This document shows positions 19,564 through 58,825 of a DNA stretch of 64,000 bases, piece after piece. The position numbers were made by a program, and so were the translations under genes. Below the pieces are notes generated by a model, which saw only the letters and a program-made list of their open reading frames with translations, did no database searches and was not told where the DNA came from. Every line of letters starts with the position of its first letter. Positions within the stretch are counted from its first letter, which is position 1. The DNA lies in assembly GCA_049322615.1 (NCBI GenBank), contig JBMORX010000002.1, positions 11,171 to 75,170 on the forward strand, written 5' to 3'. The stretch is from Patescibacteria group bacterium. Its GTDB lineage: Bacteria > Patescibacteriota > Microgenomatia > CAYGWK01.

Positions 19564-20058
19564 CTAACGTGAAACTGCGTTAAGACTTTGATTAATTAAA
19601 GTGTCGGCAATTTTGTTTTGTCGCCGAGAAATTAAATGGTAAAAAATTTTTCTGTCAACTTTTTGTTCGAGAGCTCTTGTTTGAATAATTAAACTGCGCA
19701 GTTTTGCGTCTTTAATTTTAAAGCGACCGTTAAGTTGATTAACCACTAGTTGAGAATCTAAAAAGAAGTGGATTTGGGGTGAGGATGAGAGGTGTGAAGT
19801 GGGTTCTTTTTTCTCACTTCGCACTTCCTGACTCACTTCCCATTTCTCACCCCCACCCTTATAACCCGACCTACTGCTTACAACCCATCCCAATGCCTCA
19901 ATCACTGCCTGATATTCGGCGACGTTATTAGTCGTCTTACCAATCCTCTTTGAAAACTTATAAATAATCTTTCCATTTTCTAAAACCACAAAAGCAACAG
20001 CCCCAGGCCCTGGATTTCCCCGTGAACCTCCATCGCAATAAATTGAGATTTTTTTCAT
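19564..20058 (-). CDS. rnhA: Ribonuclease HI
   Basis: 'CDGGSRGNPGPGA', 'NNVAEYQAVIEAL' and 'DSQLVVNQLNG' are present. An in-frame insert of ~30 aa is encoded by a palindromic GGTGAG/CACTTC element at 19768-19860. Confidence 0.8.
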   Translation of the reverse strand: MKKISIYCDGGSRGNPGPGAVAFVVLENGKIIYKFSKRIGKTTNNVAEYQAVIEALGWVVSSRSGYKGGGEKWEVSQEVRSEKKEPTSHLSSSPQIHFFLDSQLVVNQLNGRFKIKDAKLRSLIIQTRALEQKVDRKIFYHLISRRQNKIADTLINQSLNAVSR

Positions 20059-25104: not shown

Positions 25105-25204
25105 AAATAAAACAAAATCCTAATATCTAAATCCTAAACAGTTTTGGAAAATTTGAATTTAGAATTTAAAATTTGTTTGGGATTTCGGATTTCGTGCTTA
25201 GAAT

Positions 25205-25342
25205 TTATAATGAAATTCTTTTTCTCTTCTTCAATTTTCTTCTCTTCAAAACTTTTTTTCCACCACGCACTTTCATTCTCGCCCGAAATCCGTGCTTTCT
25301 TTTTCTTTTTAATTTTTTTGGCTGATAAGTTCTTTTCGGCAT
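25205..25342 (-). CDS. rpmH: 50S ribosomal protein L34
   Basis: Manual translation of the minus strand gives '[45 protein letters not shown]'. It is absent from the ORF track because it is shorter than 60 aa. Confidence 0.8.
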
Positions 25343-25394
25343 ATGATTATAAAAATTATAACAATTATAAACATTATAACGCAAACTTTCCCTA

Positions 25395-25424
25395 TTGACA
25401 ATTGTGGATAATCTCGGTTATTAT
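25395..25424 (+). promoter_or_regulatory. dnaA promoter with an overlapping consensus DnaA box
   Basis: TTGACA at 25395-25400 and TATTAT at 25419-25424. A perfect DnaA box (TTATCCACA on the minus strand) lies at 25403-25411 in the spacer, consistent with autoregulation. Confidence 0.5.
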
Positions 25425-25470
25425 CATTTCAGGTTTTTTTCTCCTGCCCATCTCTGCACCATCCACTGTT

Positions 25471-26808: not shown

Positions 26809-26992
26809 TTTTATGAAACTTTACACTTTTCCACAATTTACTTGCTTTTTTCAACAAATTTGTCCACACTTCGGCAAGCTCAGTGTAAACACAAAAATAA
26901 CCCAAAGACTATGAAGAAATCGCTTAATTTTTACACTTTTCAACAATTTCTACTACTATTGCTACTAATTAAAATATGGTAAAATTTAAGCA
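26809..26992. promoter_or_regulatory. Putative oriC: DnaA-box cluster with an AT-rich unwinding region in the dnaA-dnaN spacer
   Basis: TTTTCCACA at 26827-26835 and TTGTCCACA at 26859-26867. A ~24-nt direct repeat 'tttacacttttc[c/a]acaattt' occurs at 26819-26843 and 26929-26953, and an AT-rich tract at 26950-26990. Confidence 0.5.
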
Positions 26993-28108
26993 ATGAAAAT
27001 TTCGGTCTTGCAGGAAAATTTAAGTAAAGGGCTTTCAATTGTTTCAAGATCAGTCGCCTCAAAAGCAACTCTCCCAGTTTTGGGAAATATTTTACTCTCA
27101 ACAGACAAGGGAAGGCTAAAACTGCAAGGAACAAATTTAGAAACCGGAATTTCCCTTTTATGTGGAGCCAAAATTGAAGAAGAAGGAGAAATTACAATCC
27201 CTGCTCGGATTCTTGTAGAATTTGTTTCTTCTTTACCACCAGAGAAAATTGATCTTGAGACCTCTAAGACCACTCTTCGTATTTCCTCTGGTTTTTTTAA
27301 GGCAGAAATAAATGGAATTGCCTCAAGTGAATTTCCTAAAATTCCTTCTTTTCCAGATAAACCTGATTTAACTTTTGAGAAAGAAGAACTCATTAGGGCT
27401 TTATCTCAAGTTGACTTTGCCGCTGCTTCTGACGAGAGTCGGCCGGTCTTAACCGGTGTCTTGCTAAAAATTGAAAAAGAAAAAGTTTCCCTGGTGGCAA
27501 CAGACGGCTATCGTCTTTCCATAAAAAATCTGAAAGTAAAAGAACAGAAATTAGAAGGAAACCTTCTTGTTCCGGCGAAAACCCTGCTTGAAATCTGCCG
27601 AATTGCTCAAGAAGTTTCGGATGAGGAAAAAGAAATCAAGATGGCCCAAAATCCTGAAAAAAGCCAAGTGGTTTTTGACCTTGCCGATATTGAACTTTCT
27701 TCAAGACTCCTTGAAGGAGAATTTCCAGAGTTTGAGAAAATAATTCCTAGTACTTCTTCTACTAAGGCAGAGTTTGCTAAAGAAGAATTTTTGCGAGCAA
27801 TAAAAATTGCCTCAATCTTTGCCAGAGAGCAGGCAAACATTGTTAAGTTGAAAATTGGGGAAGGGAAAATGATTATTTCCGCCGAAAGCCCTCAAGTTGG
27901 TTCAAACCTTGGAGAAATTGAGGCTAAAACCGAAGGCGAAGAGCTTGAAATCGCCTTCAATTTTCGCTTTTTGCTTGACTTTTTAAATTCACCAATTGGC
28001 GAAGAAATTATTTTTGAAGCCTCAAGCCCTCTTTCCCCCGGAGTTTTTAAAATAAAAGGTGACGATTCTTTTCTTCACCTCATCATGCCGGTTCGGATTC
28101 AGGCTTAA
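26993..28108 (+). CDS. dnaN: DNA polymerase III beta subunit (sliding clamp)
   Basis: 371 aa. 'MKISVLQENLSKGLSIVSR' is typical of DnaN and there are three clamp domains. Confidence 0.85.
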   Translation: MKISVLQENLSKGLSIVSRSVASKATLPVLGNILLSTDKGRLKLQGTNLETGISLLCGAKIEEEGEITIPARILVEFVSSLPPEKIDLETSKTTLRISSGFFKAEINGIASSEFPKIPSFPDKPDLTFEKEELIRALSQVDFAAASDESRPVLTGVLLKIEKEKVSLVATDGYRLSIKNLKVKEQKLEGNLLVPAKTLLEICRIAQEVSDEEKEIKMAQNPEKSQVVFDLADIELSSRLLEGEFPEFEKIIPSTSSTKAEFAKEEFLRAIKIASIFAREQANIVKLKIGEGKMIISAESPQVGSNLGEIEAKTEGEELEIAFNFRFLLDFLNSPIGEEIIFEASSPLSPGVFKIKGDDSFLHLIMPVRIQA

Positions 28109-30708: not shown

Positions 30709-32568
30709 TTAGGTTAATTGTGGTTCTACAGGTTTAGTTTGTGAAATCGGTTCCTGAACTTGTTCTTGTTGCATTCTTAATAATTCTTCTGGTTTTGAAG
30801 TAATCAGCCTATGTTCATCAGGTGAGGCAATAACTTGAATGGCGACGTGATTGGCGCCGGCAAAAAATAACCCTTCGCCAACATTGGCCGCCAAAAGTAA
30901 ATGTTTTTCGCCCTCGGAAAGATAAAAAACCTGAGCCACCTTATCAATGGCGGCCGGTGACTGTTTCATTAAAACCTGAATTGAAGAGTTGGTGACAATT
31001 GCCTTACCGTAATCAGAGCCCAAAAAATCCTCAACATCCTGGGTAGTCGTCGTTAGTCCCAGGAAGTATTTTCTTGCTCTTTTGGCAATTGAATATAAAA
31101 AGGTGGCCGAGTCCGGATATCTCATTAAATACCAAGCCTCATCAACAATAAGAATTCTTTTTTTCATTTCCTTTCTTATTTTTGTCCAGATAAAGTCAAG
31201 GATTATAAACATGGCAATTGGACGGAGAGCCTCCTCCAGGTTTTTTAGAGAAAAAACCGTAAAAGTATTTTTGATGTCAATATTTGACCTTTGGTCAAAA
31301 ATACCCACAAATGAGCCTTTGACAAATTTTTCAATTCTATCCGCCAAACCCTTGGCTTCCGGCTCTTCCATGCCAATTAAAGCTTTGTATAAATCCTCCA
31401 TCAAGGGCGGTTCATTTTTTTGGGTCGCCGGTTCAGGAGTGATTCCCTTCATTTTGTAGGTTAAAACCAGGGCGCGATCTAAGGTTGCTTCTTCAGAGGC
31501 AGAGAGTTGTCCCATAATGACTTTAAAAAGTGAATGAAGAGATAAAATTTTCAAGCCCAGTTCGTTTTCGCCTTCCTCATAAACGGTTGATAAATCAAAG
31601 GGATTAATTTTAGCCGGTTCATTAAAGCCAAATTGAATGTATTCGCCGCCAATCGCCTGGCAAAGAGTTTTGTATTCAGCCTCTGGATCAATTATTAGAA
31701 TTTCCGTGCCAAACATCAAGGAGCGCAGAGCCTCAAGTTTGACCAGGTACGATTTACCGGATCCGCTTTTGCCAAAAATCACCGAGTTGGCATTCTCTAA
31801 AGTAAACCTGTCAAAAATAATTAAACTTCCGTTGTGCTCGTTTAAGCCATACATTATTCCCTCATTAGCCGTTAGTTCCGAGGAAGTAAAAGGAAAGGTT
31901 GAAGCCAAGGAGGTGGTGTCCATATTGCGGGTAATTATTAGTTTGTCAACGCATAAAGGCAGAGTGGTCTTAAAGCCATCCTCCATCTGGAGGGTTGCGT
32001 GTTTTGAGATAATTAAAAGGGCCCCTAAGGCGGACTCAACTTGTTTTGAAAGATGATTTAACTCCTCCAGGGAGTCAGCCGGAATAGTGATATAAAGACC
32101 AAACTGGAAAAAGCGTTCGATTCCCTTAACCAGCTGTTCTTGTAAAGCCCGGGCATCCTCAAGTTTGGCTTGAGTTTGAGGGTCAATAATTTTCCCCTGT
32201 TGAATATCGGTTGAGATTTCCGCCTCCATTTCCGTAATTTTTCGGCGCAAATCGTCAAGGACCGTCTTTCCCTCAACCGGATAGACAAACATCGAGATAT
32301 CAAGCGAATGGTCAAAGGTGATTAGGGGCGAGAGCCAATTGGCAGAGACAAATCTTGGATAGCCGGCGACAAAAAGAGTCCGAAAATAGGTATTGTTGAT
32401 TTTTATATAGTCAAAATCAACCTCAATTGCCGAAGGAGCAATAACATCTTGGACGGAGACCATTCCTTGACCAAGCCTAAGACCGCTATCGGAAATTGGG
32501 ATTTTTACTTGATTTTCTCCTTGACCGTTTGTCCGCTGATTGGCGGATTTAAAAAATGGTAAGTTCAT
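30709..32568 (-). CDS. Type IV secretion ATPase VirB4/TraC/PrgJ-like (C-terminal ATPase part)
   Basis: 'IFGKSGSGKSYLVK' is the Walker A and 'RILIVDEAWYLM' the Walker B motif. Confidence 0.7.
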   Translation of the reverse strand: MNLPFFKSANQRTNGQGENQVKIPISDSGLRLGQGMVSVQDVIAPSAIEVDFDYIKINNTYFRTLFVAGYPRFVSANWLSPLITFDHSLDISMFVYPVEGKTVLDDLRRKITEMEAEISTDIQQGKIIDPQTQAKLEDARALQEQLVKGIERFFQFGLYITIPADSLEELNHLSKQVESALGALLIISKHATLQMEDGFKTTLPLCVDKLIITRNMDTTSLASTFPFTSSELTANEGIMYGLNEHNGSLIIFDRFTLENANSVIFGKSGSGKSYLVKLEALRSLMFGTEILIIDPEAEYKTLCQAIGGEYIQFGFNEPAKINPFDLSTVYEEGENELGLKILSLHSLFKVIMGQLSASEEATLDRALVLTYKMKGITPEPATQKNEPPLMEDLYKALIGMEEPEAKGLADRIEKFVKGSFVGIFDQRSNIDIKNTFTVFSLKNLEEALRPIAMFIILDFIWTKIRKEMKKRILIVDEAWYLMRYPDSATFLYSIAKRARKYFLGLTTTTQDVEDFLGSDYGKAIVTNSSIQVLMKQSPAAIDKVAQVFYLSEGEKHLLLAANVGEGLFFAGANHVAIQVIASPDEHRLITSKPEELLRMQQEQVQEPISQTKPVEPQLT

Positions 32569-33290
32569 GGTATTTTTTTCTCCATTGCCGGTTGGACAAA
32601 AGGGGTAGTATATTCCTGACCGGCGGCTAGTTTTTGAAATCCCAAAGAGGGGTTGTAGATATCATAAAAAAGCTGGATTGCCTCCTGGGTTGAAACCTCT
32701 CTGGTTTTTAAGCCTAAACGGTTAAACTGTCTTGAGAGATGATCGCGTTTTGGATAAAGATTCATTTTTGCCCGTTCTAGAATATAATCTTTGGGATATG
32801 GAAGACCCTTTTTTCTTTGCAAAACCTGTCCCAGCGCTTGGGTGGCGCCAAGCTCCAAAGTCGAAAAGGGGATAACCACATAAAAACTTTTATCCAAAAC
32901 ATTATTTTTTTTAACCGTGTCTTCAACAAATTTTTGGTATTTTTTCATTTGTTCTGCCAAAAGTTTATTTACCTGTTTTGAGATTTCTCCTTCTAAAAGT
33001 TTTAAATAAGAGGTAACGTCCTTTCTTTTTGAACGGATAACAATTTCAATTGGAAAAGTTAAGGAATTCAAAAGGGCAGCATAGGCGAAGATTAAGGCAT
33101 CTTGCTCTTTTTCGGACAGAAGACCAAAGTTAATCGCCGTCGTCGCCAAAATTAGACAGCATGAGCCGTCTTTTAAAATAACAATATTATCTTTAATATC
33201 CTCAATTTCCAAGTGTTCTTGGGTTGAGGCGCGGATGGGAATTTTTAAGGGATCAGGCATAGTTAAATAAGCAAATAAGCAAATAAGCAA
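32565..33290 (-). CDS. VirB4 N-terminal-domain-like protein (split VirB4)
   Basis: 'VILKDGSCCLILATTAINFGLLSEKEQDALIFAYAALLNSL' resembles the CagE/TrbE/VirB4 N-domain. It overlaps the ATPase ORF by 4 nt. Confidence 0.4.
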   Translation of the reverse strand: MLICLFAYLTMPDPLKIPIRASTQEHLEIEDIKDNIVILKDGSCCLILATTAINFGLLSEKEQDALIFAYAALLNSLTFPIEIVIRSKRKDVTSYLKLLEGEISKQVNKLLAEQMKKYQKFVEDTVKKNNVLDKSFYVVIPFSTLELGATQALGQVLQRKKGLPYPKDYILERAKMNLYPKRDHLSRQFNRLGLKTREVSTQEAIQLFYDIYNPSLGFQKLAAGQEYTTPFVQPAMEKKIP

Positions 33291-33368
33291 ATGACAAATG
33301 ATGAATTTGATACTTGAAATTTGTAATATTTGGAATTGATTTGTTTATTTGTCATTTGTAATATTTGT

Positions 33369-34406
33369 TTATTTGGCCTTAATTTCAATAGGTTGAATGA
33401 TCTCGCCCCTAAGAGTGATTTTAACGATATCAAAGTCCAAACCTTCCTTTTCCGTTTCAATATCATAAGTGCCGGAAGGTAAAGGGGTGGCAATCCTGAA
33501 TTGACCAAGTTTATTGGTCCTCAAAGCCCTAACTGGATTTCCTTGTTCATCCCGAATTTCCATAATTGCTCCTTCAACAATTTTTTCCTCCCTATCTTTG
33601 ACAATGCCAACCAAAATATTGGGAATTGAGGGAACTGAAGGAAAGAGAGATTCAGGAGCAAGTTCGGCGGGTTTGGCTTGCCCGCCATAGCCCGGAGGGC
33701 GAAGGCGGGTTGGCTTTAGGAATGGTTTTTGAGGAGTATATCCTGGTATGGGAACAACCTGCCGTGCGTCACCAAAGGTTATGCCGGCGGCGCGGGGTTG
33801 AACTTCCTCAACTGGCGCAAGGCGCGGAGGTTCTTCTTTTTCAACAAAAGGCACACCAAGCCGACGAATCCTTATTCCTGCCGGTTCTTCAGCCTCCTCA
33901 AGAGGCTTTGCCTCAACCTGGATCCCTTGGGGAAGAGAAGTTAGTGAAAAAAGGTTAGTTACTTGCTTTAGGAATCCTTCTTCTTTTTGGTCAAGAAGGC
34001 TTTTTTGAACTGGTAAGGTTTGGAGATATTCAACAAGTTTTCCTCGATCTTGAGTAACGGGAACAGTTACCAGTTTTGACGGTCGAGCAGGTCTTGGTTC
34101 TAAGAATTCTGGTTTTTTTGGTTTTTTTTGCCAAAGAAACTGGGTCGGAGAGTAAACCGCTTTAAAAAAGGCAATTATCCAGGTTTGCAGAGGTCTTTCC
34201 TCAAAAGGTAAAAACGCCATTGCCGCTCCCAAACAACCGAAGAATATGATCAGAGGCCATTTGAAATAAGAAGGCAGACCGGAAGCATAAATAATAAGGG
34301 CAATTACCACCCCTCCGGCAAGTTGGAAAAATTGCTTTAAGGTCATATCGCCAACTAGGCGGAATTCGTAAGATGATATTTGTTGTGGGACAGGATGTTG
34401 TTCCAT
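33369..34406 (-). CDS. PrgI/VirB3-like two-TM protein with a Pro-rich linker and a C-terminal carboxypeptidase-regulatory-like beta-sandwich
   Basis: Two N-terminal TM helices ('GGVVIALIIYASGL', 'LIIFFGCLGAAMAF') and its position upstream of VirB4 match Gram-positive T4SS layout. The C-terminus 'VGIVKDREEKIVEGAIMEIRDEQGNPV...GQFRIATPLPSGTYDIE' is CarboxypepD_reg-like. Confidence 0.4.
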   Translation of the reverse strand: MEQHPVPQQISSYEFRLVGDMTLKQFFQLAGGVVIALIIYASGLPSYFKWPLIIFFGCLGAAMAFLPFEERPLQTWIIAFFKAVYSPTQFLWQKKPKKPEFLEPRPARPSKLVTVPVTQDRGKLVEYLQTLPVQKSLLDQKEEGFLKQVTNLFSLTSLPQGIQVEAKPLEEAEEPAGIRIRRLGVPFVEKEEPPRLAPVEEVQPRAAGITFGDARQVVPIPGYTPQKPFLKPTRLRPPGYGGQAKPAELAPESLFPSVPSIPNILVGIVKDREEKIVEGAIMEIRDEQGNPVRALRTNKLGQFRIATPLPSGTYDIETEKEGLDFDIVKITLRGEIIQPIEIKAK

Positions 34407-35633: not shown

Positions 35634-35909
35634 ATGAAAATCTGCCCAATCCGCCTGATTTATCCTACCTCAAGATTTAAACAATCGTTTAAGAAATTAA
35701 CTCCGAAAATTCAGAAATTGGCCACTGAAAAAGATGAAATTTTTCGGAAAAATGCCTTTGATCCAAGACTGCGCACCCACAAACTTAAAGGAAGACTTAA
35801 AAATTACTGGTCTTATTGGATAAACGAAGAATACCGAATAGTTTTTGAGTTTGTCGGAAAAGATATTGTTCTTTACCAGGATATTGGTACTCATGAAATC
35901 TACCAGTAG
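35634..35909 (+). CDS. RelE/ParE-family toxin
   Basis: 'LKGRLKNYWSYWINEEYRIVFEFVGKDIVLYQDIGTHEIY' matches the RelE/StbE C-terminal consensus. Confidence 0.6.
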   Translation: MKICPIRLIYPTSRFKQSFKKLTPKIQKLATEKDEIFRKNAFDPRLRTHKLKGRLKNYWSYWINEEYRIVFEFVGKDIVLYQDIGTHEIYQ

Positions 35910-36079
35910 TTTTTAAAAATATTTCCCCTTTACTCTTCCCTCTTTTACTTACTCTATTTCTCTATTGCTTGGTAGCTCGGTCGCCCTGTTGCTCTGTGGT
36001 TTTATTGCTCAGCCGCTTGATTGCTATCTTCTTTACCCTTTTCGCCTTAATATGCTATAATTTACCCAGGAGAAAAAAT

Positions 36080-40287: not shown

Positions 40288-42990
40288 TTATTTTTGGTAA
40301 GGCGTTAAAGTTCGAATCAGCCATTGTTTAGCAAGTTGTATCCCCCCAAGATAAGGGAAATAAAATTTTCCAACACCTGGAGTAACGCTTCCTCCAATTG
40401 GAGGGCTGGTATCCTTGTAAGAATAACTTACTTGACTGGCAGCATCGATATCGACAAATTTTGGCACACCATAAGGTCGAAAAATATTAAAAACTCCACT
40501 TAGGGGATTGCCGGTTTGATTCCAAATTGTTCCAAGATAGGGATGGGAAAGGGCAACCCCAATTTGGCGGTTAACGCCTTTTTCCTTTTCCTCATCGCAC
40601 TTATCATGACAAATATATCCTGTTGGGTCGCATTCAATTTCTTTTCCGCAAGGAAGATAGTCTTCGTTGATAAATTGATCAGTGGCTGAAAGAGAAATTT
40701 TGATTGGAGACTGGCAACAAAGATCATCCGCAGGATTGGAATCGGTGATTGCCGTCTTTTGACAGAGGTTAACCGGTCGAGGTTCGGGCAAACCGCAGGT
40801 TGGACCAGGAGGTTTAGGTGGTCCGCCAACAAATTCGCAGCCATCGGCAGTGAGCCTGATAGAATAGGTGGCGGAAAACCGAAAATTTGGGACAACCACA
40901 TCAGAGCGAAAATTAAATGAAGGACCGGAAAGGATATCGCCAGGCTTACCGGCAACGCTCCAAGAAGGAGCAACAAGATTGGTGCAGGCATCTGAATTCG
41001 GGCAAGTATGCCAATATTCTGAACCAATGTGAATGGAAATATCGGATAATCCTGGAGCATTTGTCAGACTGACAATGGCGTTTACGGTATAGGTATTTCC
41101 GCTTTTTGAGCATGAGCCACTGGCTTCAAAGCCTGGATTTGGAGGAGGAAGGTTGGCTTCGGCTAAAGAGGTTTTTTCTCCCAAAACTTGCTTGGATTTT
41201 GCCGGGAAAAGGGTTTTTTGAATGGTGCCCCCGGTTTCATAAAGCCTAGCCACATGGGGAACTTTTTCGATTTGAGCTTTAGGATTTAAGATTTTAAACT
41301 CATCATCGCGTTTTCTGCCGAGATAAGGATTTATATTTCCTGGGGTATCTTCTCGAGAAGCCATTGACATAACCTGCCAGAGATTAAACCATTTGCCACC
41401 ATCGGATTTTTTCCAAGCATCCCATTTTTGAGCATAATCTTTATCGCTTGGGTCAGGAGGAAAATGGCTTATGAGCAGAGAAAGTGTTGCTTCAGCGTCT
41501 CCGGTTGCCCAGGTGCTGACTTTAATCGGCGAAGCGAGATTAAAAAGACTAAAGGCAGTTTTTGCGGCCCAGAATTTTGTGGTATCATTGGTGAAAACGC
41601 AAAAATGGGTGAATTTTGCGGCGCCCTCAACAACCGGCAGACCAATTTTAGTTAAGACAGCCAGAAAGGCGTCGGTTATAAATGGAAAATCCCAGCACAG
41701 TCTTCCTTGGTAATTTAGTTTATAATCATGAATTCCTCCCTCGCCGATTTTGCCTTTGGTGGTGGCGACGGCGCGGTTTACCAGCTGTTTTTTGAGTTGA
41801 TTTTGGTACTCCATTGGCGAAAGTTTCCGCCAGACTCCGGCATGATTAACCCAATCTAGCCAGTATTTTTCGTAATTCTTGTAATATTCATTTGTCCCCT
41901 CAAAATAATCAGCTAGATATTTTTGTTCGTCCTCTTGTTGTTTCTTGCCAACAAAGGGAATTTTTACTTCCGAAGGGTCAATCGTAATCTCTCCTCCCCA
42001 AGTTCTTTCAAGCCAAGGATTGCCCTCGCAGGAAGTGCCAGCCTCTGAACGGCGATATTTTACCGAGTCGGAAACAGTAAAACCTTCGGCACAGGCAGGA
42101 GTCATTTTATTTGTTTGGTTACAGGCATCGCAGCGAACTGGTCTGGAGGTGCGATCGCCAGAATTTGAATAGTCACAAGTTTGTGGCGGTGAAACTGTTG
42201 GTTTTTGAATACTCATTGCTTTAAGAAGAAGTTCACGGGTTTCGGCTGGGAGATCTTTCCACCAGTCATTGAGCCAGCGTGGATCCAAAAAGGTGCCAGT
42301 ATCCCGGATAGCCACTAGGATTTCATTCCCAATTGCTTCACCAATTTTCATTCCCGCCATAAGCGCTGGTAACTCATCTCTACCTGCTTGATTCAACTGG
42401 TTGTAGTAAGCAACAAGAGCAGGATCAACCCGAATATTTTCAAGATAAAGAGTATAGCCAGCAACAGCAATATTGTCGTCAGGAGTGTATTTTAAAGTAA
42501 TGCTATTTTGGTCGGCGTAGATGACGAGAACTTCGTATCCACCGCCAATGTCGTAACCTGAATTCGGCACCAAAATTGCCTGATTAGCGTTAGTGGAAAA
42601 ACCAACTAAAGTGGCAAAATCAGCAGGAGCATCGTCAGGTTTTTTAATACCACCGATTTGATAAAGGCTCGTGACAGAAGGAGCAAGATTCCCCTCAATA
42701 AGAGTATTAAATTGAGGTGCCCTCGGATCAGTTTCATGTTGGAAGTTAATGAAATTCAAATTTCCAGAAATTGACTTATAACCAAGGATATCCAAATTCC
42801 AGTCGGGATTGAGTTCAGAACAACTACTATAATCTGATGAGGGGGTACAGGCAGCGTAGGCGGGGAAAGTAAAAAGTAAAAAGTAAAAAGTAAAAAGTAA
42901 AATTGAAATTACTATATTCGGATTAATTCGGATTATTTTCATTCGGACAGATTCGGATTCAGGGACCAATTTTAAATTGGGTAACGTCAA
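40288..42990 (-). CDS. Large Cys-rich secreted/surface protein (900 aa) with a repeat-encoded signal peptide
   Basis: It has an N-terminal hydrophobic 'ILLFTFYFLLFTFPAYA' and many Cys pairs (CDAC, C..C). It sits between the VirB6-like gene and the pilins. No known domain. Confidence 0.45.
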   Translation of the reverse strand: MTLPNLKLVPESESVRMKIIRINPNIVISILLFTFYFLLFTFPAYAACTPSSDYSSCSELNPDWNLDILGYKSISGNLNFINFQHETDPRAPQFNTLIEGNLAPSVTSLYQIGGIKKPDDAPADFATLVGFSTNANQAILVPNSGYDIGGGYEVLVIYADQNSITLKYTPDDNIAVAGYTLYLENIRVDPALVAYYNQLNQAGRDELPALMAGMKIGEAIGNEILVAIRDTGTFLDPRWLNDWWKDLPAETRELLLKAMSIQKPTVSPPQTCDYSNSGDRTSRPVRCDACNQTNKMTPACAEGFTVSDSVKYRRSEAGTSCEGNPWLERTWGGEITIDPSEVKIPFVGKKQQEDEQKYLADYFEGTNEYYKNYEKYWLDWVNHAGVWRKLSPMEYQNQLKKQLVNRAVATTKGKIGEGGIHDYKLNYQGRLCWDFPFITDAFLAVLTKIGLPVVEGAAKFTHFCVFTNDTTKFWAAKTAFSLFNLASPIKVSTWATGDAEATLSLLISHFPPDPSDKDYAQKWDAWKKSDGGKWFNLWQVMSMASREDTPGNINPYLGRKRDDEFKILNPKAQIEKVPHVARLYETGGTIQKTLFPAKSKQVLGEKTSLAEANLPPPNPGFEASGSCSKSGNTYTVNAIVSLTNAPGLSDISIHIGSEYWHTCPNSDACTNLVAPSWSVAGKPGDILSGPSFNFRSDVVVPNFRFSATYSIRLTADGCEFVGGPPKPPGPTCGLPEPRPVNLCQKTAITDSNPADDLCCQSPIKISLSATDQFINEDYLPCGKEIECDPTGYICHDKCDEEKEKGVNRQIGVALSHPYLGTIWNQTGNPLSGVFNIFRPYGVPKFVDIDAASQVSYSYKDTSPPIGGSVTPGVGKFYFPYLGGIQLAKQWLIRTLTPYQK

Positions 42991-43402: not shown

Positions 43403-43783
43403 TTAAATTGACGGAATCGTCAATTGAAGAATATCAACTCCAAAAAGAGTTTTAATTAACAAAATAATTGCCCAAGCGACAAAGATGATTACTAATCCCA
43501 CTAAGGCGGCGGTAATCTGATTGCGAGCAGCCTCCGTTCCAGCTTTATCGCCACCAGAAACAATCCAACGAATCCCACCGATGACGAGCATAAAGAAGAA
43601 TGCCAAGGCGGCGATAACTAAGATGAACCTGATAGCGGCGGCGACGACTCTTTCAACCGTGATTCCACAGAGAGGTTTCCATTTCTCTTCCTTCGGACAA
43701 AGTTCAATTTGGGCAAAGACCGGAGTGGCGGAAATAGCCATTCCTATGGTGGTTAACCAAAGCGAATTTAATATCTTTTTCAT
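43403..43783 (-). CDS. T4SS pilin-like protein with a cleavable signal peptide and a Cys pair
   Basis: 'MKKILNSLWLTTIGMAISATPVFA' is a signal peptide, followed by 'CPKEEKWKPLC' and 'VIGGIRWIVSGGDKAGTEAARNQITAALVGL'. Confidence 0.55.
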   Translation of the reverse strand: MKKILNSLWLTTIGMAISATPVFAQIELCPKEEKWKPLCGITVERVVAAAIRFILVIAALAFFFMLVIGGIRWIVSGGDKAGTEAARNQITAALVGLVIIFVAWAIILLIKTLFGVDILQLTIPSI

Positions 43784-43843
43784 TCTTTCACCCCCTTTCT
43801 TTACCCGCCGCTCAAGCGCTCTTTAAAGTAAGCTTAGGCGGGC

Positions 43844-44197
43844 TTATTTTAAGATTAACGGTTCTAAATTAATTTGTAAAAGATTTATGCCAAAAAAATC
43901 ACCCAATACTTTCATTATAGCAAAAAGAGTAAAAACAAGCACTAGTCCAATGGCGGCGGTCGTCAGCTGACCTCTTACTTGCTCCATTTGCGCCTTGTCT
44001 CCACCTGAAGTAATATAGCGGATTCCGCCAATGACCAAGTAGAAAAAGGCAGCCAAAGAAGTGATAATTAAAAGAAGGGTAACAATATTGGGTAATATCT
44101 TTCCCAGGAATTCAATTCCAGTCCAGCCCCTAATTTTTTCCGAAAGGGCAGGATTGTAGATTGGGGTTGGCTCTGCGTTTGTCATTTTGTTTGCCAA
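43844..44197 (-). CDS. T4SS pilin-like protein
   Basis: 'LVIGGIRYITSGGDKAQMEQVRGQLTTAAIGL'. Confidence 0.55.
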   Translation of the reverse strand: MANKMTNAEPTPIYNPALSEKIRGWTGIEFLGKILPNIVTLLLIITSLAAFFYLVIGGIRYITSGGDKAQMEQVRGQLTTAAIGLVLVFTLFAIMKVLGDFFGINLLQINLEPLILK

Positions 44198-44568
44198 ATA
44201 TTAAGAATAAAAGTACCAGGCTGAAGGATTTTCAAACCCATAAGGGTGCCGAGAAGGTCTATCAAAAAGATGGCGGCAACGACAATTGCTAATCCAATGA
44301 TAGCGTTCATGATTCTTTTTTGGGCGTTTTCCACGGCGGCTTTATCTGCTCCAGCCGTTAGCCAACCAAAAGCCCCAATAATAAATTGAAAAATAAACCA
44401 AAGTCCGGCGGCAACAGTCAGGACGCCGACAATATTGGAGATGACTTTATTGAAAAGGTCGGCTGCTTTGTCAACGAATTGAGTAGCAAATTCGGCTGTC
44501 TTTCCGAGGGGACCAAGACCCTCCAGGGTTCCCAATTCTTCTCCTTTTTGAGCAAGTAAAGTAAACAT
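44182..44568 (-). CDS. T4SS pilin-like protein (divergent paralog)
   Basis: 'IIGAFGWLTAGADKAAVENAQKRIMNAIIGL'. Confidence 0.5.
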   Translation of the reverse strand: MFTLLAQKGEELGTLEGLGPLGKTAEFATQFVDKAADLFNKVISNIVGVLTVAAGLWFIFQFIIGAFGWLTAGADKAAVENAQKRIMNAIIGLAIVVAAIFLIDLLGTLMGLKILQPGTFILNIWQTK

Positions 44569-44573
44569 TTATT

Positions 44574-44960
44574 TTAGAGTGGGCCCGGTGGACGCTTCCA
44601 GGGCTCTTCTAATCCCGGACCCCAAATCTTCGGTTTAAGAATTGCGGTGGCGTCTCCAAATAAAAGCCAGCCAAAAATTGCCGCCAAGACAAATGAGCCG
44701 GCGATAATTAAAAGCCCAACTAAAGATTGCCAAATTTTTGCCCAGGCTTTTTCCACTGATTTTGGCTCACCCCCGGCGGACATAAATTGATAACCAGCTA
44801 AAATTAAATTTAAAAACGCGTAAAGTCCAGCCCCAACGATTAAAAGTTTGATAATGGCATTCAAGAAAGGAATTAAGCCAGGAACGCCTTGTCCACCCAT
44901 TCCAATCCATTTTGAAATCCCAGGCGGTGGCTTGACTGGTCCGATGATATCGTCAGGCAT
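44574..44960 (-). CDS. T4SS pilin-like protein (divergent paralog)
   Basis: 'ILAGYQFMSAGGEPKSVEKAWAKIWQSLVGL'. Confidence 0.5.
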   Translation of the reverse strand: MPDDIIGPVKPPPGISKWIGMGGQGVPGLIPFLNAIIKLLIVGAGLYAFLNLILAGYQFMSAGGEPKSVEKAWAKIWQSLVGLLIIAGSFVLAAIFGWLLFGDATAILKPKIWGPGLEEPWKRPPGPL

Positions 44961-44962
44961 AT

Positions 44963-45274
44963 TTAAAGAGTTGATTTTAAAATATCAAGTCCGGTGACCA
45001 CCTCAATTAGTCGAATTAGCAAATATGATAAAAATATTAGTAAAAATCCAATTACGGCTGCGGTCACCGCTTGTTTTCCTTGTTCGGTTTTTTTCGGATC
45101 ATCTCCTCCTGCACCCATAATAATGCCAAATCCCCCAAATATCAAGAGCGCAAAAAGCAAAAGACCAGCCAGAATATAGACATTGGGAAGAAGAGTAGAG
45201 ATTAATTTTCCCAGATTGGGAAAAGTCTTCGCAGGAGCAAATTCCGTTCCGATATCAACCGCAAACGCTTTCAT
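44963..45274 (-). CDS. T4SS pilin-like protein
   Basis: 'LIFGGFGIIMGAGGDDPKKTEQGKQAVTAAVIGF'. Confidence 0.5.
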   Translation of the reverse strand: MKAFAVDIGTEFAPAKTFPNLGKLISTLLPNVYILAGLLLFALLIFGGFGIIMGAGGDDPKKTEQGKQAVTAAVIGFLLIFLSYLLIRLIEVVTGLDILKSTL

Positions 45275-47753: not shown

Positions 47754-48470
47754 TTGAGGATGGTAAAAACAAAACTTGACCAAAACCATATTCCCAAACA
47801 CATTGGGATTATTATGGATGGAAACCGGAGGTGGGCTGCCAAAAAGGGATTAACAATAAACCAGGGGCATGAGGCAGGAGTTAAAGCCTTGGTAAAAATT
47901 GTTGAGCACTGTTTGGATTTAGAGGTTAAGACCCTGACGGTTTATACCCTATCCACGGAAAACTGGCGAAAAAGAGCCAAAGAAGAGGTCAAAGGTATCT
48001 TTGATTTGTTGATAAGAGGAGTTGAAGAGAAAAAAGAGGAGTATAAGAAAAAAGGGGTTAAGGTGGCGATTTTGGGCGATTTTCAGGCATTTCCTCGAAA
48101 AGTTGTTCGGGCAATTGAAGAAATTTTAAAGATTGTTAAAGAACATGAGAGACTTAAGGTAAACTTGGCTCTAAATTATGGCGGTCGGGATGAGATTTTG
48201 CAGGCAGTTAAAAAAATTATTGGTGAGGGAATCCCCCCAGAGAAAATTAATGAAGAGACATTCGGTAAATTTCTTTACACTAATGGTGAACCAGATCCAG
48301 ATTTAATTATCCGCACCGGCGGAGAAATAAGACTTTCAAATTTTTTGCTTTGGCAGATGTCTTATTCTGAACTTTATTTTACCGATACCCTCTGGCCTGA
48401 TTTTAGCCCGAGAGAACTGGATAAGGCAATTGCCGAATATCAGAAAAGAGAGAGAAGATTTGGGAAATAG
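47754..48470 (+). CDS. uppS: Undecaprenyl diphosphate synthase
   Basis: 'HIGIIMDGNRRWA', 'NYGGRDEI' and 'IRTGGEIRLSNFLLWQMSYSELYF'. Confidence 0.85.
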   Translation: MRMVKTKLDQNHIPKHIGIIMDGNRRWAAKKGLTINQGHEAGVKALVKIVEHCLDLEVKTLTVYTLSTENWRKRAKEEVKGIFDLLIRGVEEKKEEYKKKGVKVAILGDFQAFPRKVVRAIEEILKIVKEHERLKVNLALNYGGRDEILQAVKKIIGEGIPPEKINEETFGKFLYTNGEPDPDLIIRTGGEIRLSNFLLWQMSYSELYFTDTLWPDFSPRELDKAIAEYQKRERRFGK

Positions 48471-49007
48471 AGTGGGGATGAGGGTGAGAAGTGGGAAGTG
48501 AGTCGGGAGGTGAGAAGTGAGGGTGAGTTATTTCTTGAAATTAGTCCAGCTTTCTCCGAGTCGATAAAGCTGTTTTCCAGAAATATCATACATTTCGATT
48601 AAATAATCACAGAGTTTTGGATCAACCAAATGAGAGTAGAGATCTTTGATTAAAGATAGATGGGTAATCATTTCATTGCGTTCACCTAGAGCATCTTCTA
48701 AATATTTTTTCCAGGCTCTTTTCTGATGCTTCTTTGCGTATCCTTCGGCAATAATCGCCAGTGGTGCCATACAAGCCCGTCGCCCCTGCTCTTTTAAATT
48801 GTATTTTTCTTCTTCTGGAAGTTTAGGGAGAATTTCTTTAAGAAAAATAATGGCAGCCTTATAGAGAGTTTTGTAAACATCCAAATCTTTGAAGCTTCTA
48901 ATAGGATTTGTGCTCATTTTTATTTATATCTTACTTCTCACATCTCACTTCTTAACCCACTTCTCACATCTCACCCTCACCCTCACCCTCATCCTCATCC
49001 CCCCACT
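48471..49007 (-). mobile_element. Intervening-sequence-like cassette: four-helix-bundle protein gene (48528..48917) bracketed by ~57/77-nt GGTGAG/CACTTC-rich imperfect inverted repeats
   Basis: IR-L at 48471-48527 begins 'agtggggatgagggtgagaagtgggaagtgag...'. The reverse complement of IR-R at 48931-49007 begins 'agagtggggggatgaggatgagggtgagggtgag...'. The two repeats abut the stop codons of the flanking convergent genes exactly (uppS at 48470, pilin at 49008). Confidence 0.5.
48528..48917 (-). CDS. Four-helix-bundle protein (TIGR02436; formerly '23S rRNA intervening sequence protein')
   Basis: 'FKDLDVYKTLYKAAIIFLKEILPKLPEEEKYNLKEQGRRACMAPLAIIAEGYAKK' fits the family consensus (F.DL.VW..A..L...IY..T..FPK.E.Y.L..Q.RRAA.SI..NIAEG). 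Confidence 0.65.
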   Translation of the reverse strand: MSTNPIRSFKDLDVYKTLYKAAIIFLKEILPKLPEEEKYNLKEQGRRACMAPLAIIAEGYAKKHQKRAWKKYLEDALGERNEMITHLSLIKDLYSHLVDPKLCDYLIEMYDISGKQLYRLGESWTNFKK

Positions 49008-49331
49008 CTAAAAGATTTTAGGTAGTCCGAAAACCACCTGTAAAACCTGCACCAGCAGAAAGGAGGTAAAAATTATCAAAAAGCCAATCACCGCTCCGGT
49101 TATTTTGCCTTTGGCTGACTCTACTGCCTTTGGGTCACCCCTTGAAGTCATTAGTTGAAATCCACCCAGGATTAGATAGGCTAGAAGTCCCAGTCCGGCA
49201 AGAACAAGAATGTAGGGAAGAAGAGCGGAGACGATATCACCAATCTTAAGATCGCCCTTTGCTGGTAGCGATCCTGAAGGAAAGGCTTGTCGAAGTTCGT
49301 CAAAATTAATTGCTTGAGCCAAAAGTTCCAT
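49008..49331 (-). CDS. T4SS pilin-like protein
   Basis: 'LILGGFQLMTSRGDPKAVESAKGKITGAVIGF'. Confidence 0.5.
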   Translation of the reverse strand: MELLAQAINFDELRQAFPSGSLPAKGDLKIGDIVSALLPYILVLAGLGLLAYLILGGFQLMTSRGDPKAVESAKGKITGAVIGFLIIFTSFLLVQVLQVVFGLPKIF

Positions 49332-49335
49332 TTCA

Positions 49336-49797
49336 AGTTAAAAATTAAAAGTCAAAAGTCCAAAGTTTCAATTTAGAGTCTAAAATATTATTTACCCTTT
49401 AATGTTTTTACGCTAGAACCAATAATATTTGAAATCTCCATTAGTTCACCTAACAGCGAATTAATTTTCTCTTTATCTCCTTTGCCCGTGTCTCTTAAAA
49501 GAGCCAGCCAAAATTTTGACTCGTTCGCTGATTTTAAAACATGGGTTAAGAAGTTAGTAAAATCTCTTTTTGAGCTACCAGCAATTGCCTCTACATAATT
49601 GGCGCCAATGCTTGTTCCGCTTCTTAGTAGCTGGTCTATGGCAATTCTGCAGAGAGGGTCATTTTTAGGAAGAGTTTCTGTAAACTTGATAAGCTCGATT
49701 ATAAATCTGTATATCCGCCTTTTGAGTGCTTCGCTGAAAGCTTTGTTATCTTTTCTCATATTTTAATTTTTAATTTTTGACTTTAGACTTTTAACTA
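49336..49797 (-). mobile_element. Second intervening-sequence-like cassette: four-helix-bundle gene (49388..49759) bracketed by AT-rich imperfect inverted repeats
   Basis: The left arm 'agttaaaaattaaaagtcaaaagtccaaagt...agagtctaaaat' (49336-49386) matches the reverse complement of the right arm 'agttaaaagtctaaagtcaaaaattaaaaattaaaa' (49761-49797). Both share the words agttaaaa, agtcaaaa, agtctaaa and attaaaa. Confidence 0.45.
49388..49759 (-). CDS. Four-helix-bundle protein (TIGR02436)
   Basis: 'DQLLRSGTSIGANYVEAIAGSSKRDFTNFLTHVLKSANESKFWLALL' is the canonical central motif of the family. Confidence 0.65.
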   Translation of the reverse strand: MRKDNKAFSEALKRRIYRFIIELIKFTETLPKNDPLCRIAIDQLLRSGTSIGANYVEAIAGSSKRDFTNFLTHVLKSANESKFWLALLRDTGKGDKEKINSLLGELMEISNIIGSSVKTLKGK

Positions 49798-49798
49798 T

Positions 49799-50311
49799 TT
49801 AAAATCCTGGAATCTCTAAAATTTTCACTCCTATTAATTGTAGCAGAAAAACGGAAAAAATAATCATCAAAAGCCCCATTAGGGCAGAGGTAATTAGTTC
49901 TTTTCCGGCTTTAAGTCTATCCGGGTCTCCGCTTGATGTCATAATCTGAAAAGCGCCTAAAAGCATTAAAAGAAAAGCAATTCCGCCGCCAATGCCAATG
50001 GCTAATTTTAAAAACCAAGTCACAAAAGCCGTTGGATTACTAACATCAACACAGCCGACGGCGGTTTCAATTCCACCAGGGCAAGCGCTGCTCGGTGGGG
50101 GAGGTGGAGGTTGTGGAGTAGGGGCCGAGCTGCACTCTGATTGGGTGTCGCAGCAATAATGACTAGGGGGAAGCACTAATTGGCAATCAACAGGTCTATA
50201 GCACATTCCTCCTGCAGGGTCTCTGGTCTCATCACAGGTAGCCTGGGCGATTTGGGAGAACAAGAGTCCGATGACAAAAAGAAAGAGACTTGCAACAAGA
50301 ACTTTTTTCAT
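49799..50311 (-). CDS. T4SS pilin-like protein with a signal peptide and a Cys/Pro-rich N-terminal module
   Basis: The internal start MKKVLVASLFLFVIGLLFS is preferred. 'CDETRDPAGGMCYRPVDCQ...PTPQPPPPPPSSAC' is followed by 'LLGAFQIMTSSGDPDRLKAGKELITSALMGL'. Confidence 0.5.
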   Translation of the reverse strand: MKKVLVASLFLFVIGLLFSQIAQATCDETRDPAGGMCYRPVDCQLVLPPSHYCCDTQSECSSAPTPQPPPPPPSSACPGGIETAVGCVDVSNPTAFVTWFLKLAIGIGGGIAFLLMLLGAFQIMTSSGDPDRLKAGKELITSALMGLLMIIFSVFLLQLIGVKILEIPGF

Positions 50312-50406
50312 TATTTTCAGTCTAGCACACATCAAGGGCGAAGTGCAAAGGGCGAAGTGAAAAGGGCGAAGTGGGAAGTAGTATTCATGATATAATTTTA
50401 AGTAAG

Positions 50407-54992: not shown

Positions 54993-55087
54993 AAACGAAA
55001 AGAGAAAAATGACAATTAAAAATCCCAAAATTTTTTAATTTTACATTGTAATTTTTAATTTTTATATTTTAATTTTTCATTTTCTTT

Positions 55088-56064: not shown

Positions 56065-56319
56065 GTGTATTATGTTTATATTCTTCAAAGCCTCAAAGAT
56101 GGAAGTCTCTATTTTGGCTACACTCCAGACTTAAAAAATCGTTTAATAAAACACAACTCTGACCAAGTTTTCTCAACCAAAGGCAAAACTCCATTTAGGC
56201 TAATTTATTATGAGGCATATTTTAATAGAAAGGACGCTACTGGCAGAGAGAAATTCTTAAAAAGTGGAGCAGGCTGGCGGTTCATCAAAAAACAACTATT
56301 TCATTATTTCAATGGGTAG
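56065..56319 (+). CDS. GIY-YIG nuclease-domain protein (YhbQ/UPF0213-like)
   Basis: 'YYVYILQSLKDGSLYFGYTPDLKNRLIKHN' is the GIY-YIG core. Confidence 0.7.
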   Translation: MYYVYILQSLKDGSLYFGYTPDLKNRLIKHNSDQVFSTKGKTPFRLIYYEAYFNRKDATGREKFLKSGAGWRFIKKQLFHYFNG

Positions 56320-57052
56320 TGTTTCGAAATTTCCTTGGCACGTGGTCCGCGAAAGCGGACTTTACGTGCTAGATTTTTTCTTCCCCAAAAAATGTCTTGG
56401 TTGCGGAAAAACTGGCGGATATTTTTGTCCGGAATGTCTAAATTTTGTTTCTTTGGATCCTCAAAGAATTTGTCCGGTTTGTGAAAGACTCTCAATTGGT
56501 GGTCGAACTCATCCTGGTTGTCAAACCCAAACTACTCTTGATGGTTTAACCTCAATTTTTAGTTATAAAGGCATAATTAAAAAAGGGATTAGTAAACTGA
56601 AATATCATTTTGTTTCTGATTTAGCCTCGGATTTGGTCGAAATCTTTTTGGGCCTTTGCGGTGAAGATAAAACTTTTAGCGATTTTTGTTTGGAGAAACA
56701 TCCTTGTTTAGTCCCCATTCCTCTTCATCCAAGAAGAGAAAAATGGCGCGGGTTTAATCAATCAGCCCTTTTAGGAAAAATGATTGCCAAAAATCTTAAT
56801 TTGGATTTTGCTCCAGATTTGATAAAGCGAATTAAAAACACCAAACCCCAAATAAAACTTAAAGAAAAAGAAAGAAAAGAAAACATCAAAGGTGCCTTCA
56901 GAGTTTCTCCCACTTCACACTTCGCTCTTCTCACTTCGCCCTTGATCCTTTTTGACGACGTCTGGACGAGTGGGGCAACCTTAAAAGAAGCGGGAGAAGT
57001 ACTAAAACGCGCAGGAGCCAAAAAGGTTTGGGGATTAACTTTGGCGAGGTAG
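56313..57052 (+). CDS. comF: ComF-family protein (double zinc ribbon plus phosphoribosyltransferase domain)
   Basis: 'CLGCGK...CPECL' and 'CPVCER...HPGC' are the zinc ribbons. The C-terminal PRTase 'LFDDVWTSGATLKEA' is present. There is an in-frame repeat insert 'SPTSHFALLTSPLI' at 56907-56947. Confidence 0.65.
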
Positions 57053-58265: not shown

Positions 58266-58381
58266 CCCCGTCGAACGTGGCTGTCGCGTTTGACGCGACG
58301 CAAATTTAGGCGGGATATGCGAGTTCAATTCTCGCCAGGGGCACATAACAATAGCAAATAGTAAATTGCAAATAGCAAATA

Positions 58382-58825
58382 GTGAAAAAGCAAAAAGTTA
58401 AAAGAGAATTCTCGGCTGGCGGAGTAGTTTTTCGCCGAGAACCAGAAGGAATTCTTTGGCTGGTGATAAAGCCAGCAGGAAGTGAGAAATGGCGCTTACC
58501 TAAGGGTTGGATTGGGAAAAATGAGAGTTCCCTTGAGGCAGCCAAAAGAGAAGTAGCCGAAGAAGCAGGAGTTAAGGCTGAAGTTTTGGGTAAAGTGGGT
58601 AGCGAAAAATATTTTTTTGTTCAAGGTAAAGAGAAAATCTTAAAAAACGTGGTTTTTTATTTAATGGAGTATCTTCAGGAAGCAGAAACAGGTTTTTCTT
58701 GGGAAACGGAGAAAATTGATTGGTTACCATTTAAAGAAGCCAAAGAGCGACTGGCTTTTGCCAAAGAAAAGGAAATTTTAGAAAAAGCAGCACTGAAAGT
58801 TTGCGAAGCGCAAACCACGTGCTAG
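58382..58825 (+). CDS. NUDIX hydrolase
   Basis: Nudix box 'GWIGKNESSLEAAKREVAEEAGV'. Confidence 0.65.
   Translation: MKKQKVKREFSAGGVVFRREPEGILWLVIKPAGSEKWRLPKGWIGKNESSLEAAKREVAEEAGVKAEVLGKVGSEKYFFVQGKEKILKNVVFYLMEYLQEAETGFSWETEKIDWLPFKEAKERLAFAKEKEILEKAALKVCEAQTTC

Follow-up and report, generated by a model that had tools for sequence, protein, structure and literature searches.

What are two genes for four-helix-bundle proteins—a family that is also encoded inside the intervening sequences (IVSs) of 23S rRNA—doing between the pilin genes of an uncultured Patescibacteria bacterium of the candidate phyla radiation (CPR)? The question arises from a 64,000-nt chromosomal stretch of contig JBMORX010000002.1, hereafter the window, which contains dnaA and dnaN, a tmRNA, and tRNAs. 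Here, four minus-strand genes arranged head to tail (48471–50305)—a pilin-like gene, a four-helix-bundle gene, a type IV secretion system (T4SS)-type pilin gene, and another four-helix-bundle gene—converge on uppS (47754–48470, plus strand). Both four-helix-bundle proteins are 100% identical to NCBI entries of a metagenome-assembled genome (MAG) named "Patescibacteria group bacterium." An earlier note, made from the letters of the DNA, had described two cassettes, each with its gene bracketed by inverted repeats, and had proposed a mobile or processed RNA element with a stem around the open reading frame (ORF). Its layout holds: protein profiles assign both minus-strand genes to PF05635/TIGR02436, a pilin gene lies between them, and the pairing of the arms places each inside inverted repeats. 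They also lie outside rRNA, as the note had said, with no rRNA gene in the window and with uppS and pilin genes as flanks. We consider it likely that the cassettes are IVS-type selfish elements living outside rRNA, transcribed by read-through and with a stem that is probably cut by RNase III.

Cassette 1 (48471–49007, minus strand) comprises 537 bp and fills the exact space between the stop codons of uppS and of the T4SS-type pilin gene. On its sense strand, a G-rich 5' arm of GTGAG/GGTGAG heptamers and hexamers (48930–49007), which in window numbering ends at the base before the pilin stop codon, is followed by an A-rich spacer up to the start codon (48918–48929), in which no Shine–Dalgarno sequence is visible on reading the sequence, by the ORF for a 129-aa protein (48528–48917), and by a 3' arm (48471–48527) that is C-rich on the sense strand, GTGAG-type on the plus strand, and, in window numbering, begins with the base next to the uppS stop codon. 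The repeat, noted before to abut the two stop codons, reaches into both of them (TAGAGTGGGG / CCCCACTCTA). Cassette 2 (49332–49798, minus strand) fills the gap between the two pilin genes. Its 5' arm (49760–49798) consists of AGTTAAAAGTCTAAAGTCAAAA heptamers and begins 2 nt past the stop codon of the upstream pilin-like gene (49799–50305, minus strand; T4SS_pilin match just below the cut-off), the ORF (49388–49759) encodes 123 aa, and the AT-rich 3' arm (49332–49387), of GACTTTT type on the sense strand, ends 4 nt before the start codon of the pilin gene that separates the cassettes (49008–49331, minus strand; 107 aa, T4SS_pilin match).

Whether such cassettes are insertions can be read from genomes that share the locus. 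A scan for close relatives of uppS yielded 63 loci with a conserved order of uppS, pilin, pilin, and spoIID. For about 20 relatives, with uppS genes 72–88% identical to that of the window, the stop codons of uppS and the pilin gene lie 0–11 bp apart or the genes overlap (e.g., TAG/CTA or TAG/T/TTA). Hence, the 537 bp of cassette 1 are extra DNA. The pilin–pilin junction is likewise short in most relatives, and, judged by this comparison of loci, both cassettes are insertions into junctions that elsewhere have essentially zero length. Ordinary, unique flanks in relatives would, according to the earlier note, have spoken against its reading, and the reverse is found: the repeat flanks are retained around related genes, and at related loci the entire cassette is missing. 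Also, the comparison shows that the two junctions were filled independently. Loci L145–L147 carry an orthologue of cassette 1 and an empty pilin–pilin junction, L166 carries an orthologue of cassette 2 (88% amino acid identity) and an empty uppS–pilin junction, and in L148 both are filled, the second by a different family member.

The uppS–pilin junction of other relatives is occupied by four-helix-bundle genes that are only 34–66% identical to those of the window. At least five arm types are found at this junction, each with a different four-helix-bundle gene: CGTTATC/CGAGATA, ACGTAAT, AATTTAA, TTATTCTAA/GGGATTT, and GGATGAG/GGGTTGTGG. Two of the cassette genes there bear premature stops (L083 and L082), and two loci hold nothing more than ORF-less hairpins of 116 and 164 bp (L087 and L092; fold z-scores of −2.9 and −2.4). 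A 5'-truncated copy of the cassette 2 gene, still between the same arms, is present in L086. This invasion, decay, and loss at the uppS–pilin junction is the pattern that a selfish element produces.

Do the arms belong to the gene or to the site? In a Chisholmbacteria genome, two large unrelated ORFs flank a copy in which the arm of cassette 2 (AGTTAAAAGTCYAAAGTCAAAA and its complement) encloses an 82%-identical protein; in Portnoybacteria, this arm encloses a protein of 67% identity, and the neighbors are gapA and rpiB. The sequence of the 5' arm of cassette 2 occurs in L166, L152, and L158. Between cassette copies, synonymous sites are saturated (proportion of synonymous differences, pS, 0.62–0.94) and the ratio of nonsynonymous to synonymous rates (dN/dS) is 0.05–0.08, while the arms are still 73–92% identical, with z-scores of 2.3–12.6 above composition-matched shuffles. 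The low ratio and the conservation of the arms despite saturation argue that protein and arms are both constrained. These alignments show the arms and the ORF moving jointly, as one unit. For the ORF of cassette 1 against its orthologues, the proportion of nonsynonymous differences (pN) is 0.16–0.19 at a saturated pS of 0.78–0.85, with a dN/dS of 0.08 for the L145–L148 orthologue pair; for cassette 2 against the orthologue at the same site in L166, dN/dS is 0.05. By this measure, the cassette ORFs are shown to be under strong purifying selection.

Units of the arms also occur apart from the gene. The rnhA gene (19564–20058, minus strand) encodes a protein 24 aa longer than its closest homologues (135–141 aa), and the extra length corresponds to an in-frame, ORF-less hairpin of the cassette 1 (GTGAG) repeat family at 19775–19862 (minus strand; dG −39.6, z-score −3.1). 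Between the G-rich arm of this hairpin and the left arm of cassette 1, read on the plus strand, identity is 87%. A single arm of the GTGAG family lies in-frame in tsaD (8755–8815, plus strand) and adds 14 aa. Three copies of a 26-nt unit, GGGTGAGAAGTGGGWRGTGAGTCRGG, lie in the window with 0–1 mismatch, where chance predicts none: in the 3' arm of cassette 1 (48482–48507), in rnhA, and in tsaD (8771–8796, on the minus strand). Hence, the three places share a repeat family. The earlier note had named the cassette 1 repeat as the source of the rnhA insert, of which the common family is borne out and cassette 1 as the donor is not, as the direction cannot be shown.

RNase HI proteins of only distant relationship bear similar inserts at this loop of rnhA, encoded by one arm rich in G and then one rich in C. 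Four of them, about 50–60% identical to the window protein (P0139, P0145, P0147, and P0131), have their inserts at the same surface loop, and these read as translated G-rich and then C-rich arms, e.g., ...GWGWVMG...EGE... followed by ...PTTHISTPP. Either the loop is a hot spot of recurrent insertion, as these alignments suggest, or the polymorphism is ancient.

A rival reading is that the cassettes have been domesticated as operon punctuation, their stems serving RNA processing, stability, or insulation for the host where genes are closely packed or converge, their protein being a host RNA-binding factor, and their mobility being a matter of the past. The low dN/dS values would suit such a role, as would the vertical retention of cassette 1 at one junction and the ORF-less hairpins of L087 and L092, and the convergence of uppS and the pilin gene without a spacer leaves room for an insulating hairpin. 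However, most close relatives are without any element at both junctions, the occupants vary in type and include pseudogenes, the same cassette lies between unrelated genes elsewhere, and arm units are found inside the coding sequences of rnhA and tsaD, where an insulator makes no sense. Domestication is on these grounds an unlikely explanation.

The arms of cassette 1, about 57 and 78 nt long, pair best without gaps over 53 nt at 79% complementarity (48469–48521 / 48937–48989), and those of cassette 2, about 56 and 39 nt long, over 42 nt at 74% (49347–49388 / 49758–49799). Local complementarity scores are 31.5 and 23.0, respectively, compared with a 99th percentile of 14.5 in the control of equally spaced genomic segment pairs. 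Each 5' arm of the window ranks first of 82 against its own 3' arm, and arms of cassette 1 paired with those of cassette 2 score at background level. Folding each cassette as RNA, the check that had been proposed with the first description, predicts terminal stems for both. For cassette 1, the stem reaches about 60 bp and the whole element a z-score of −3.5, with 0 of 100 shuffles as stable; for cassette 2, an AT-rich stem of about 22 bp appears in both the minimum-free-energy and the centroid structure. Together with the empty sites, the varied occupants, and the unrelated contexts, these predicted stems speak for the mobile element with a stem around its ORF that had been proposed. The earlier description of the repeats needs one correction, in their make-up: beyond sharing words, the arms are arrays of degenerate heptamers, with a lag-7 autocorrelation of 0.49–0.78 in the four window arms and with period 7, 14, and 6 arrays reported by Tandem Repeats Finder (TRF) in the 5' arm of cassette 1 (48928–48997). 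A search of Rfam at gathering thresholds gave no family at either cassette.

The same architecture extends well beyond this locus. A scan of species-representative genomes returned 80 loci with proteins 50–64% identical, and hosts of the family include Microgenomates, Saccharibacteria, Omnitrophota, Planctomycetota, Desulfobacterota, Gammaproteobacteria, Bacteroidales, Zixibacteria, and one archaeal MAG. At nearly all of the loci, a repeat arm upstream is matched by a complementary one downstream, with an arm sequence that depends on the group and a median distance of 16 nt from arm to ATG. Flank complementarity, calculated for 82 genes, exceeds the 99th percentile of genomic controls for 62% and the 95th percentile for 80%, and the cognate arm ranks first in 21/82 and among the top three in 31/82. 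Lag-7 periodicity is 0.359 across 166 arms versus 0.265 in controls. An initial duplex-energy control with mismatched loci gave strong energies because loci share arm types, and was replaced by genomic and shuffle controls. Arm lengths vary by repeat slippage, and anchoring the arms on a GTCGGGA / TCCCGAC core left the alignment too noisy. Neither rRNA nor any other Rfam family was detected in the loci of 20 sampled relatives, so that a life outside rRNA is the norm for this clade.

One subfamily has a near-identical complex arm in MAGs assigned to Omnitrophota, Desulfobacterota, and Planctomycetota (loci L012, L014, L016, L018, L021, L022, L027, L029, L030, and L035). This arm reads GGTAACGGTTAGGGTAACGAAGCCCGTATCGGTTAA... 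and pairs with ...CGATACGGGCATCGTAACC..., with a conserved A:A mismatch. Such near-identity across phyla points to transfer of whole cassettes between phyla or to a strongly constrained recognition site, as judged from the aligned arms.

Do the repeats act as DNA or as RNA? At the level of DNA, they could form a cruciform or a single-strand hairpin for a recombinase or transposase acting in trans, which would make the cassettes non-autonomous and similar to MITEs (miniature transposable elements with inverted repeats) or to integron cassettes and RNA pairing incidental. Terminal inverted repeats, ORF-less derivatives, insertion polymorphism, and dispersed 26-nt arm units on both strands are all features of this kind, and the bases on either side of cassette 1 can be read as a TA. 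However, neither a TA nor another duplication is found at cassette 2 or the relatives examined, the arms lie on both sides of the ORF, unlike the one-sided attC, and a pure DNA palindrome would not be expected to pair better in one orientation than in the other. Precisely such an asymmetry is observed: the arm duplex is more stable as sense than as antisense RNA in 62 versus 19 cassettes (Wilcoxon p = 1.3e-6), with mean energies of −45.5 and −39.8 kcal/mol. As both energies would be equal for a perfect palindrome, the difference stems from mismatches that become G-U pairs in the sense transcript. The energy bias is a sign that the sense RNA is under selection or, at the least, that sense-strand transcription biases mutation. 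A plain count of mismatches in the stems, 117 for G:T and 97 for A:C, gives no clear-cut answer. A purely DNA-level element is thus quite unlikely in our view.

For an element acting as RNA, the source of the transcript matters. The median gaps to the neighboring genes are 83 and 86 nt, about one arm length. The gaps therefore essentially consist of the arms and leave no room for a promoter. With orientations taken from crude ORF calls, the upstream gene is co-oriented in 70/76 cases, where 0.80 is the baseline for these loci (p = 0.003), and the downstream gene shows no excess over that baseline. A promoter and terminator scan of the window region gave nothing above shuffle expectation; one 10/12 match lies at 49044–49015, just upstream of cassette 1. 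In combination, the lack of space, the upstream co-orientation, and the lack of a promoter signal make it likely that the cassette ORFs are expressed by read-through from the host gene.

A cassette would then be a promoter-less four-helix-bundle (4HB) gene within imperfect inverted repeats of 40–80 nt, built of degenerate heptamers and placed in an ordinary operon. Host read-through would produce pilB-4HB2-pilA-4HB1 as one minus-strand transcript, in whose sense RNA the arms would pair into long double-stranded stems. A stem of 22–60 bp is a typical substrate of RNase III, and cleavage as in rRNA IVSs would release a small mRNA and separate the host cistrons. The protein most likely serves the RNA or the propagation of its own element. 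The element also has hairpin derivatives that lack the ORF, and some of these lie in-frame within protein genes. The support that the comparisons give to an RNA-level role of the cassettes is indirect.

The proteins themselves are clear members of their family. The PF05635 profile scores 50.6 bits for cassette 1 and 63.1 bits for cassette 2 (curated cut-off 33.8) and the TIGR02436 profile 48.5 and 81.5 bits (curated cut-off 24). An AlphaFold2 model, calculated for the cassette 1 protein alone, shows four helices at a mean predicted local distance difference test score (pLDDT) of 92.5. With Foldseek, this model matches the Protein Data Bank entries 2gsc and 2rld with template modeling (TM) scores of 0.76/0.88 and 0.69/0.77, and profile searches find the same two entries at 1e-8 and 4.5e-6; these are XCC0516 and BT_0352, the two members of the "S23 / IVS protein" family whose structures are solved. 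The motif RxxxSxxxNxxE is conserved in the family (PMC3936711). By eye, the cassette 2 protein carries it (RSGTSIGANYVE), and in the cassette 1 clade only R47 and E58 are invariant, with the spacing of the motif. The PADLOC defence and PHROGs phage libraries gave no match for the cassette proteins, a tblastn search of plasmids none at 1e-8, and a scan of viral contigs no relatives.

The family membership raises another possibility, namely that the proteins are accessory factors of the Avd type belonging to a diversity-generating retroelement, with the repeats as part of its template or target system. PF05635 is the commonest family beside the reverse transcriptases of such retroelements and resembles Avd, a small basic four-helix-bundle protein that is treated as a PF05635 homologue (PMC10053308). 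The cassettes differ from this arrangement: a reverse transcriptase is neither adjacent nor present in the scanned part of the window ORFs, and template or variable repeats are missing. Furthermore, their neighbors are housekeeping genes in every context seen, viral contigs and PHROGs gave nothing, and the profile search leads to 2gsc and 2rld and not, at the sequence level, to Avd. An origin from a diversity-generating retroelement is hence very improbable.

Several observations weigh against the reading of the cassettes as selfish, RNA-processed elements. There is no target-site duplication or end motif that is consistent across cassettes, and no transposase, integrase, or reverse transcriptase was found in the window ORFs scanned or beside any relative. 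The closest relatives of the cassette 1 protein (70–74% amino acid identity) are all at the same junction, so that cassette 1 has long been inherited vertically, and the distribution of these relatives does not support a recent transposition. Strong purifying selection is compatible with a host-beneficial gene, too. Folded as a whole, cassette 2 does not reach significance (z-score −1.2). Among cassettes of the GTGAG subfamily, arms pair with those of other cassettes as well as with their own partners, which leaves copy-specific compensatory change without support, and the sense/antisense asymmetry could partly reflect transcription-biased C-to-T mutation. Finally, RNase III processing is proposed by analogy only, and the window ORFs that were scanned, a part of the total, include no RNase III gene.

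How do the cassettes relate to known systems? The nearest are the ORF-bearing 23S rRNA IVSs of Leptospira, Coxiella, Xanthomonas, and Brucella, whose S23p ORF encodes the same protein family within a long terminal stem. The Coxiella IVS has tandem heptamers (GACAGAT, three times) just upstream of the S23p ORF and is excised by RNase III; as in the cassettes, the heptamers adjoin the ORF, the Shine–Dalgarno sequence is weak or absent, forms with and without ORF occur, and the element lies in sense orientation inside the host transcript (PMC4990558). Insertions in CPR rRNA genes also carry a four-helix-bundle ORF (PMC11270868). In contrast to the IVSs, the cassettes are located between protein genes and have arm units inside protein genes. 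Also, the ORF of the Coxiella IVS is decaying and apparently untranslated, whereas the ORFs here are under strong purifying selection, and excision by RNase III, demonstrated there, would apply here by extension. No description of such cassettes outside rRNA was found in the searchable literature, which is itself incomplete. Known, then, are IVS-type hairpin elements with this ORF; new, from the genome comparisons, are their location outside rRNA and the evidence for insertion and for joint movement of arms and gene.

Other repeats share single features. The Correia and ERIC (enterobacterial repetitive intergenic consensus) hairpin MITEs of Neisseria and enterobacteria are small, polymorphic inverted-repeat elements in transcribed intergenic DNA beside gene ends, which fold in mRNA, with the Correia fold being cut by RNase III; they have defined termini, a TA duplication, and no ORF, and are not built of heptamers. 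The ORF-less hairpins in rnhA, L087, and L092 look similar, but the cassettes have no duplication that is consistent among them, and a conserved gene, not for a transposase, is part of the full element. Integron gene cassettes likewise consist of a promoter-less ORF and an imperfect inverted repeat in the orientation of the upstream transcription unit, but their attC site is one-sided and they need an integrase and attI, whereas the arms here are two-sided, an attI platform is lacking, and the scanned ORFs hold no integrase. G-rich heptamer arrays, often arranged within intergenic DNA as convergent inverted pairs, are known as GGGAATC pairs in Xanthomonas (about 70 pairs in X. campestris) and as short tandemly repeated repetitive (STRR) heptamers in cyanobacteria; their array length differs among relatives, and they have been discussed as G-quadruplex formers (PMC4692102). 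Xanthomonas also encodes XCC0516. The study of the repeat pairs draws no link to four-helix-bundle genes (PMC4692102).

The function of the rRNA IVS protein and the origin of the IVSs have been open questions since the early 1990s, when mobility was proposed and, since then, never demonstrated. The filled and empty sites, independent occupancy, competing types, decayed or ORF-less copies, and the recurrence of arms with ORF in unrelated contexts across phyla make the mobility of IVSs testable outside rRNA. They also suggest that many of the scattered bacterial genes annotated as four helix bundle protein are selfish inserts rather than partners of their neighbors. Genes of the family have been reported inside cas operons, e.g., between cmr3 and cmr2 in Pleurocapsa (PMC3936711), and such locations, as described, would fit insertion. 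As the in-frame hairpin of rnhA and the arm in tsaD show, essential proteins, too, are remodeled by the same repeats. A more far-reaching idea, which we regard as doubtful, is that hairpin-bounded four-helix-bundle cassettes form a widespread class of transposase-free mobile elements, of which the rRNA IVSs are only the first-noticed case: they would enter any transcribed DNA, be it rRNA helices, the boundaries of genes in operons, or, as in-frame derivatives without the ORF, protein-coding genes, spread via the excised hairpin RNA with the Avd-like protein as a cofactor of a reverse transcriptase or ligase acting in trans, and leave heptamer arrays as their footprint. If this were true, the associations with cas operons would be recast as insertions and not as functional partnerships.

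Heptamer-like arrays are frequent in the window. Arrays with a period of 7, 14, or 21 make up 36 of the 92 non-redundant TRF arrays (periods 8 and 9 account for 10 each), e.g., at 17918–17946, 21888–22913, 42866–42902, 55032–55083, and 58350–58394, and many of them are in coding sequence. At least seven lie in a Wzy_C-like gene (21771–23093), and CCACTTC is repeated four times in a DUF4012 gene. The tsaD gene (8324–9433, plus strand) has further in-frame heptamer or related arrays at 8514–8605, 8989–9023, 9099–9135, and 9287–9313: a GATACTA-type hairpin adds about 21 aa, and the others are CAAATTA (five times), AAGTATCAC (four times), and CTAATTA (four times), the last of which aligns to solved TsaD without a change in length, as if native sequence had been overwritten. 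No heptamer enrichment is present in the uppS loci of relatives, so that the excess across the genome may be a peculiarity of this organism.

Another family of G-rich repeats has a period of 14 nt around a GGGCGAAG core, with neither a partner arm nor an ORF seen. It comprises AAGGGCGAAGTGNA, repeated three times where the pilin operon and spoIID diverge (50334–50378), TCTCTCTTCGCCCT, repeated 2.6 times in the ORF at 2449–3360 (array at 3234–3270), and CTTCACACTTCGCC, repeated 2.2 times in the gene at 56264–57052 (array at 56913–56943).

As to the wider surroundings, both cassettes sit at the edge of a T4SS-like cluster (30709–34406 and 43403–45274) that encodes a P-loop ATPase of the TraG/VirB4 type and a PrgI-like protein and has several small pilin-like genes in a row, as is typical of CPR genomes. 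The window also encodes an AbiEii-type nucleotidyltransferase toxin (12997–13668, minus strand) and a YafQ/RelE-type toxin (35634–35909, plus strand), the latter followed by a pyrimidine-rich intergenic tract (35917–35968). In the chromosomal origin region (25115–25380 and 25402–28108), short tandem arrays with periods of 7, 9, 15, and 18 precede dnaA and dnaN and may include clusters of DnaA boxes.

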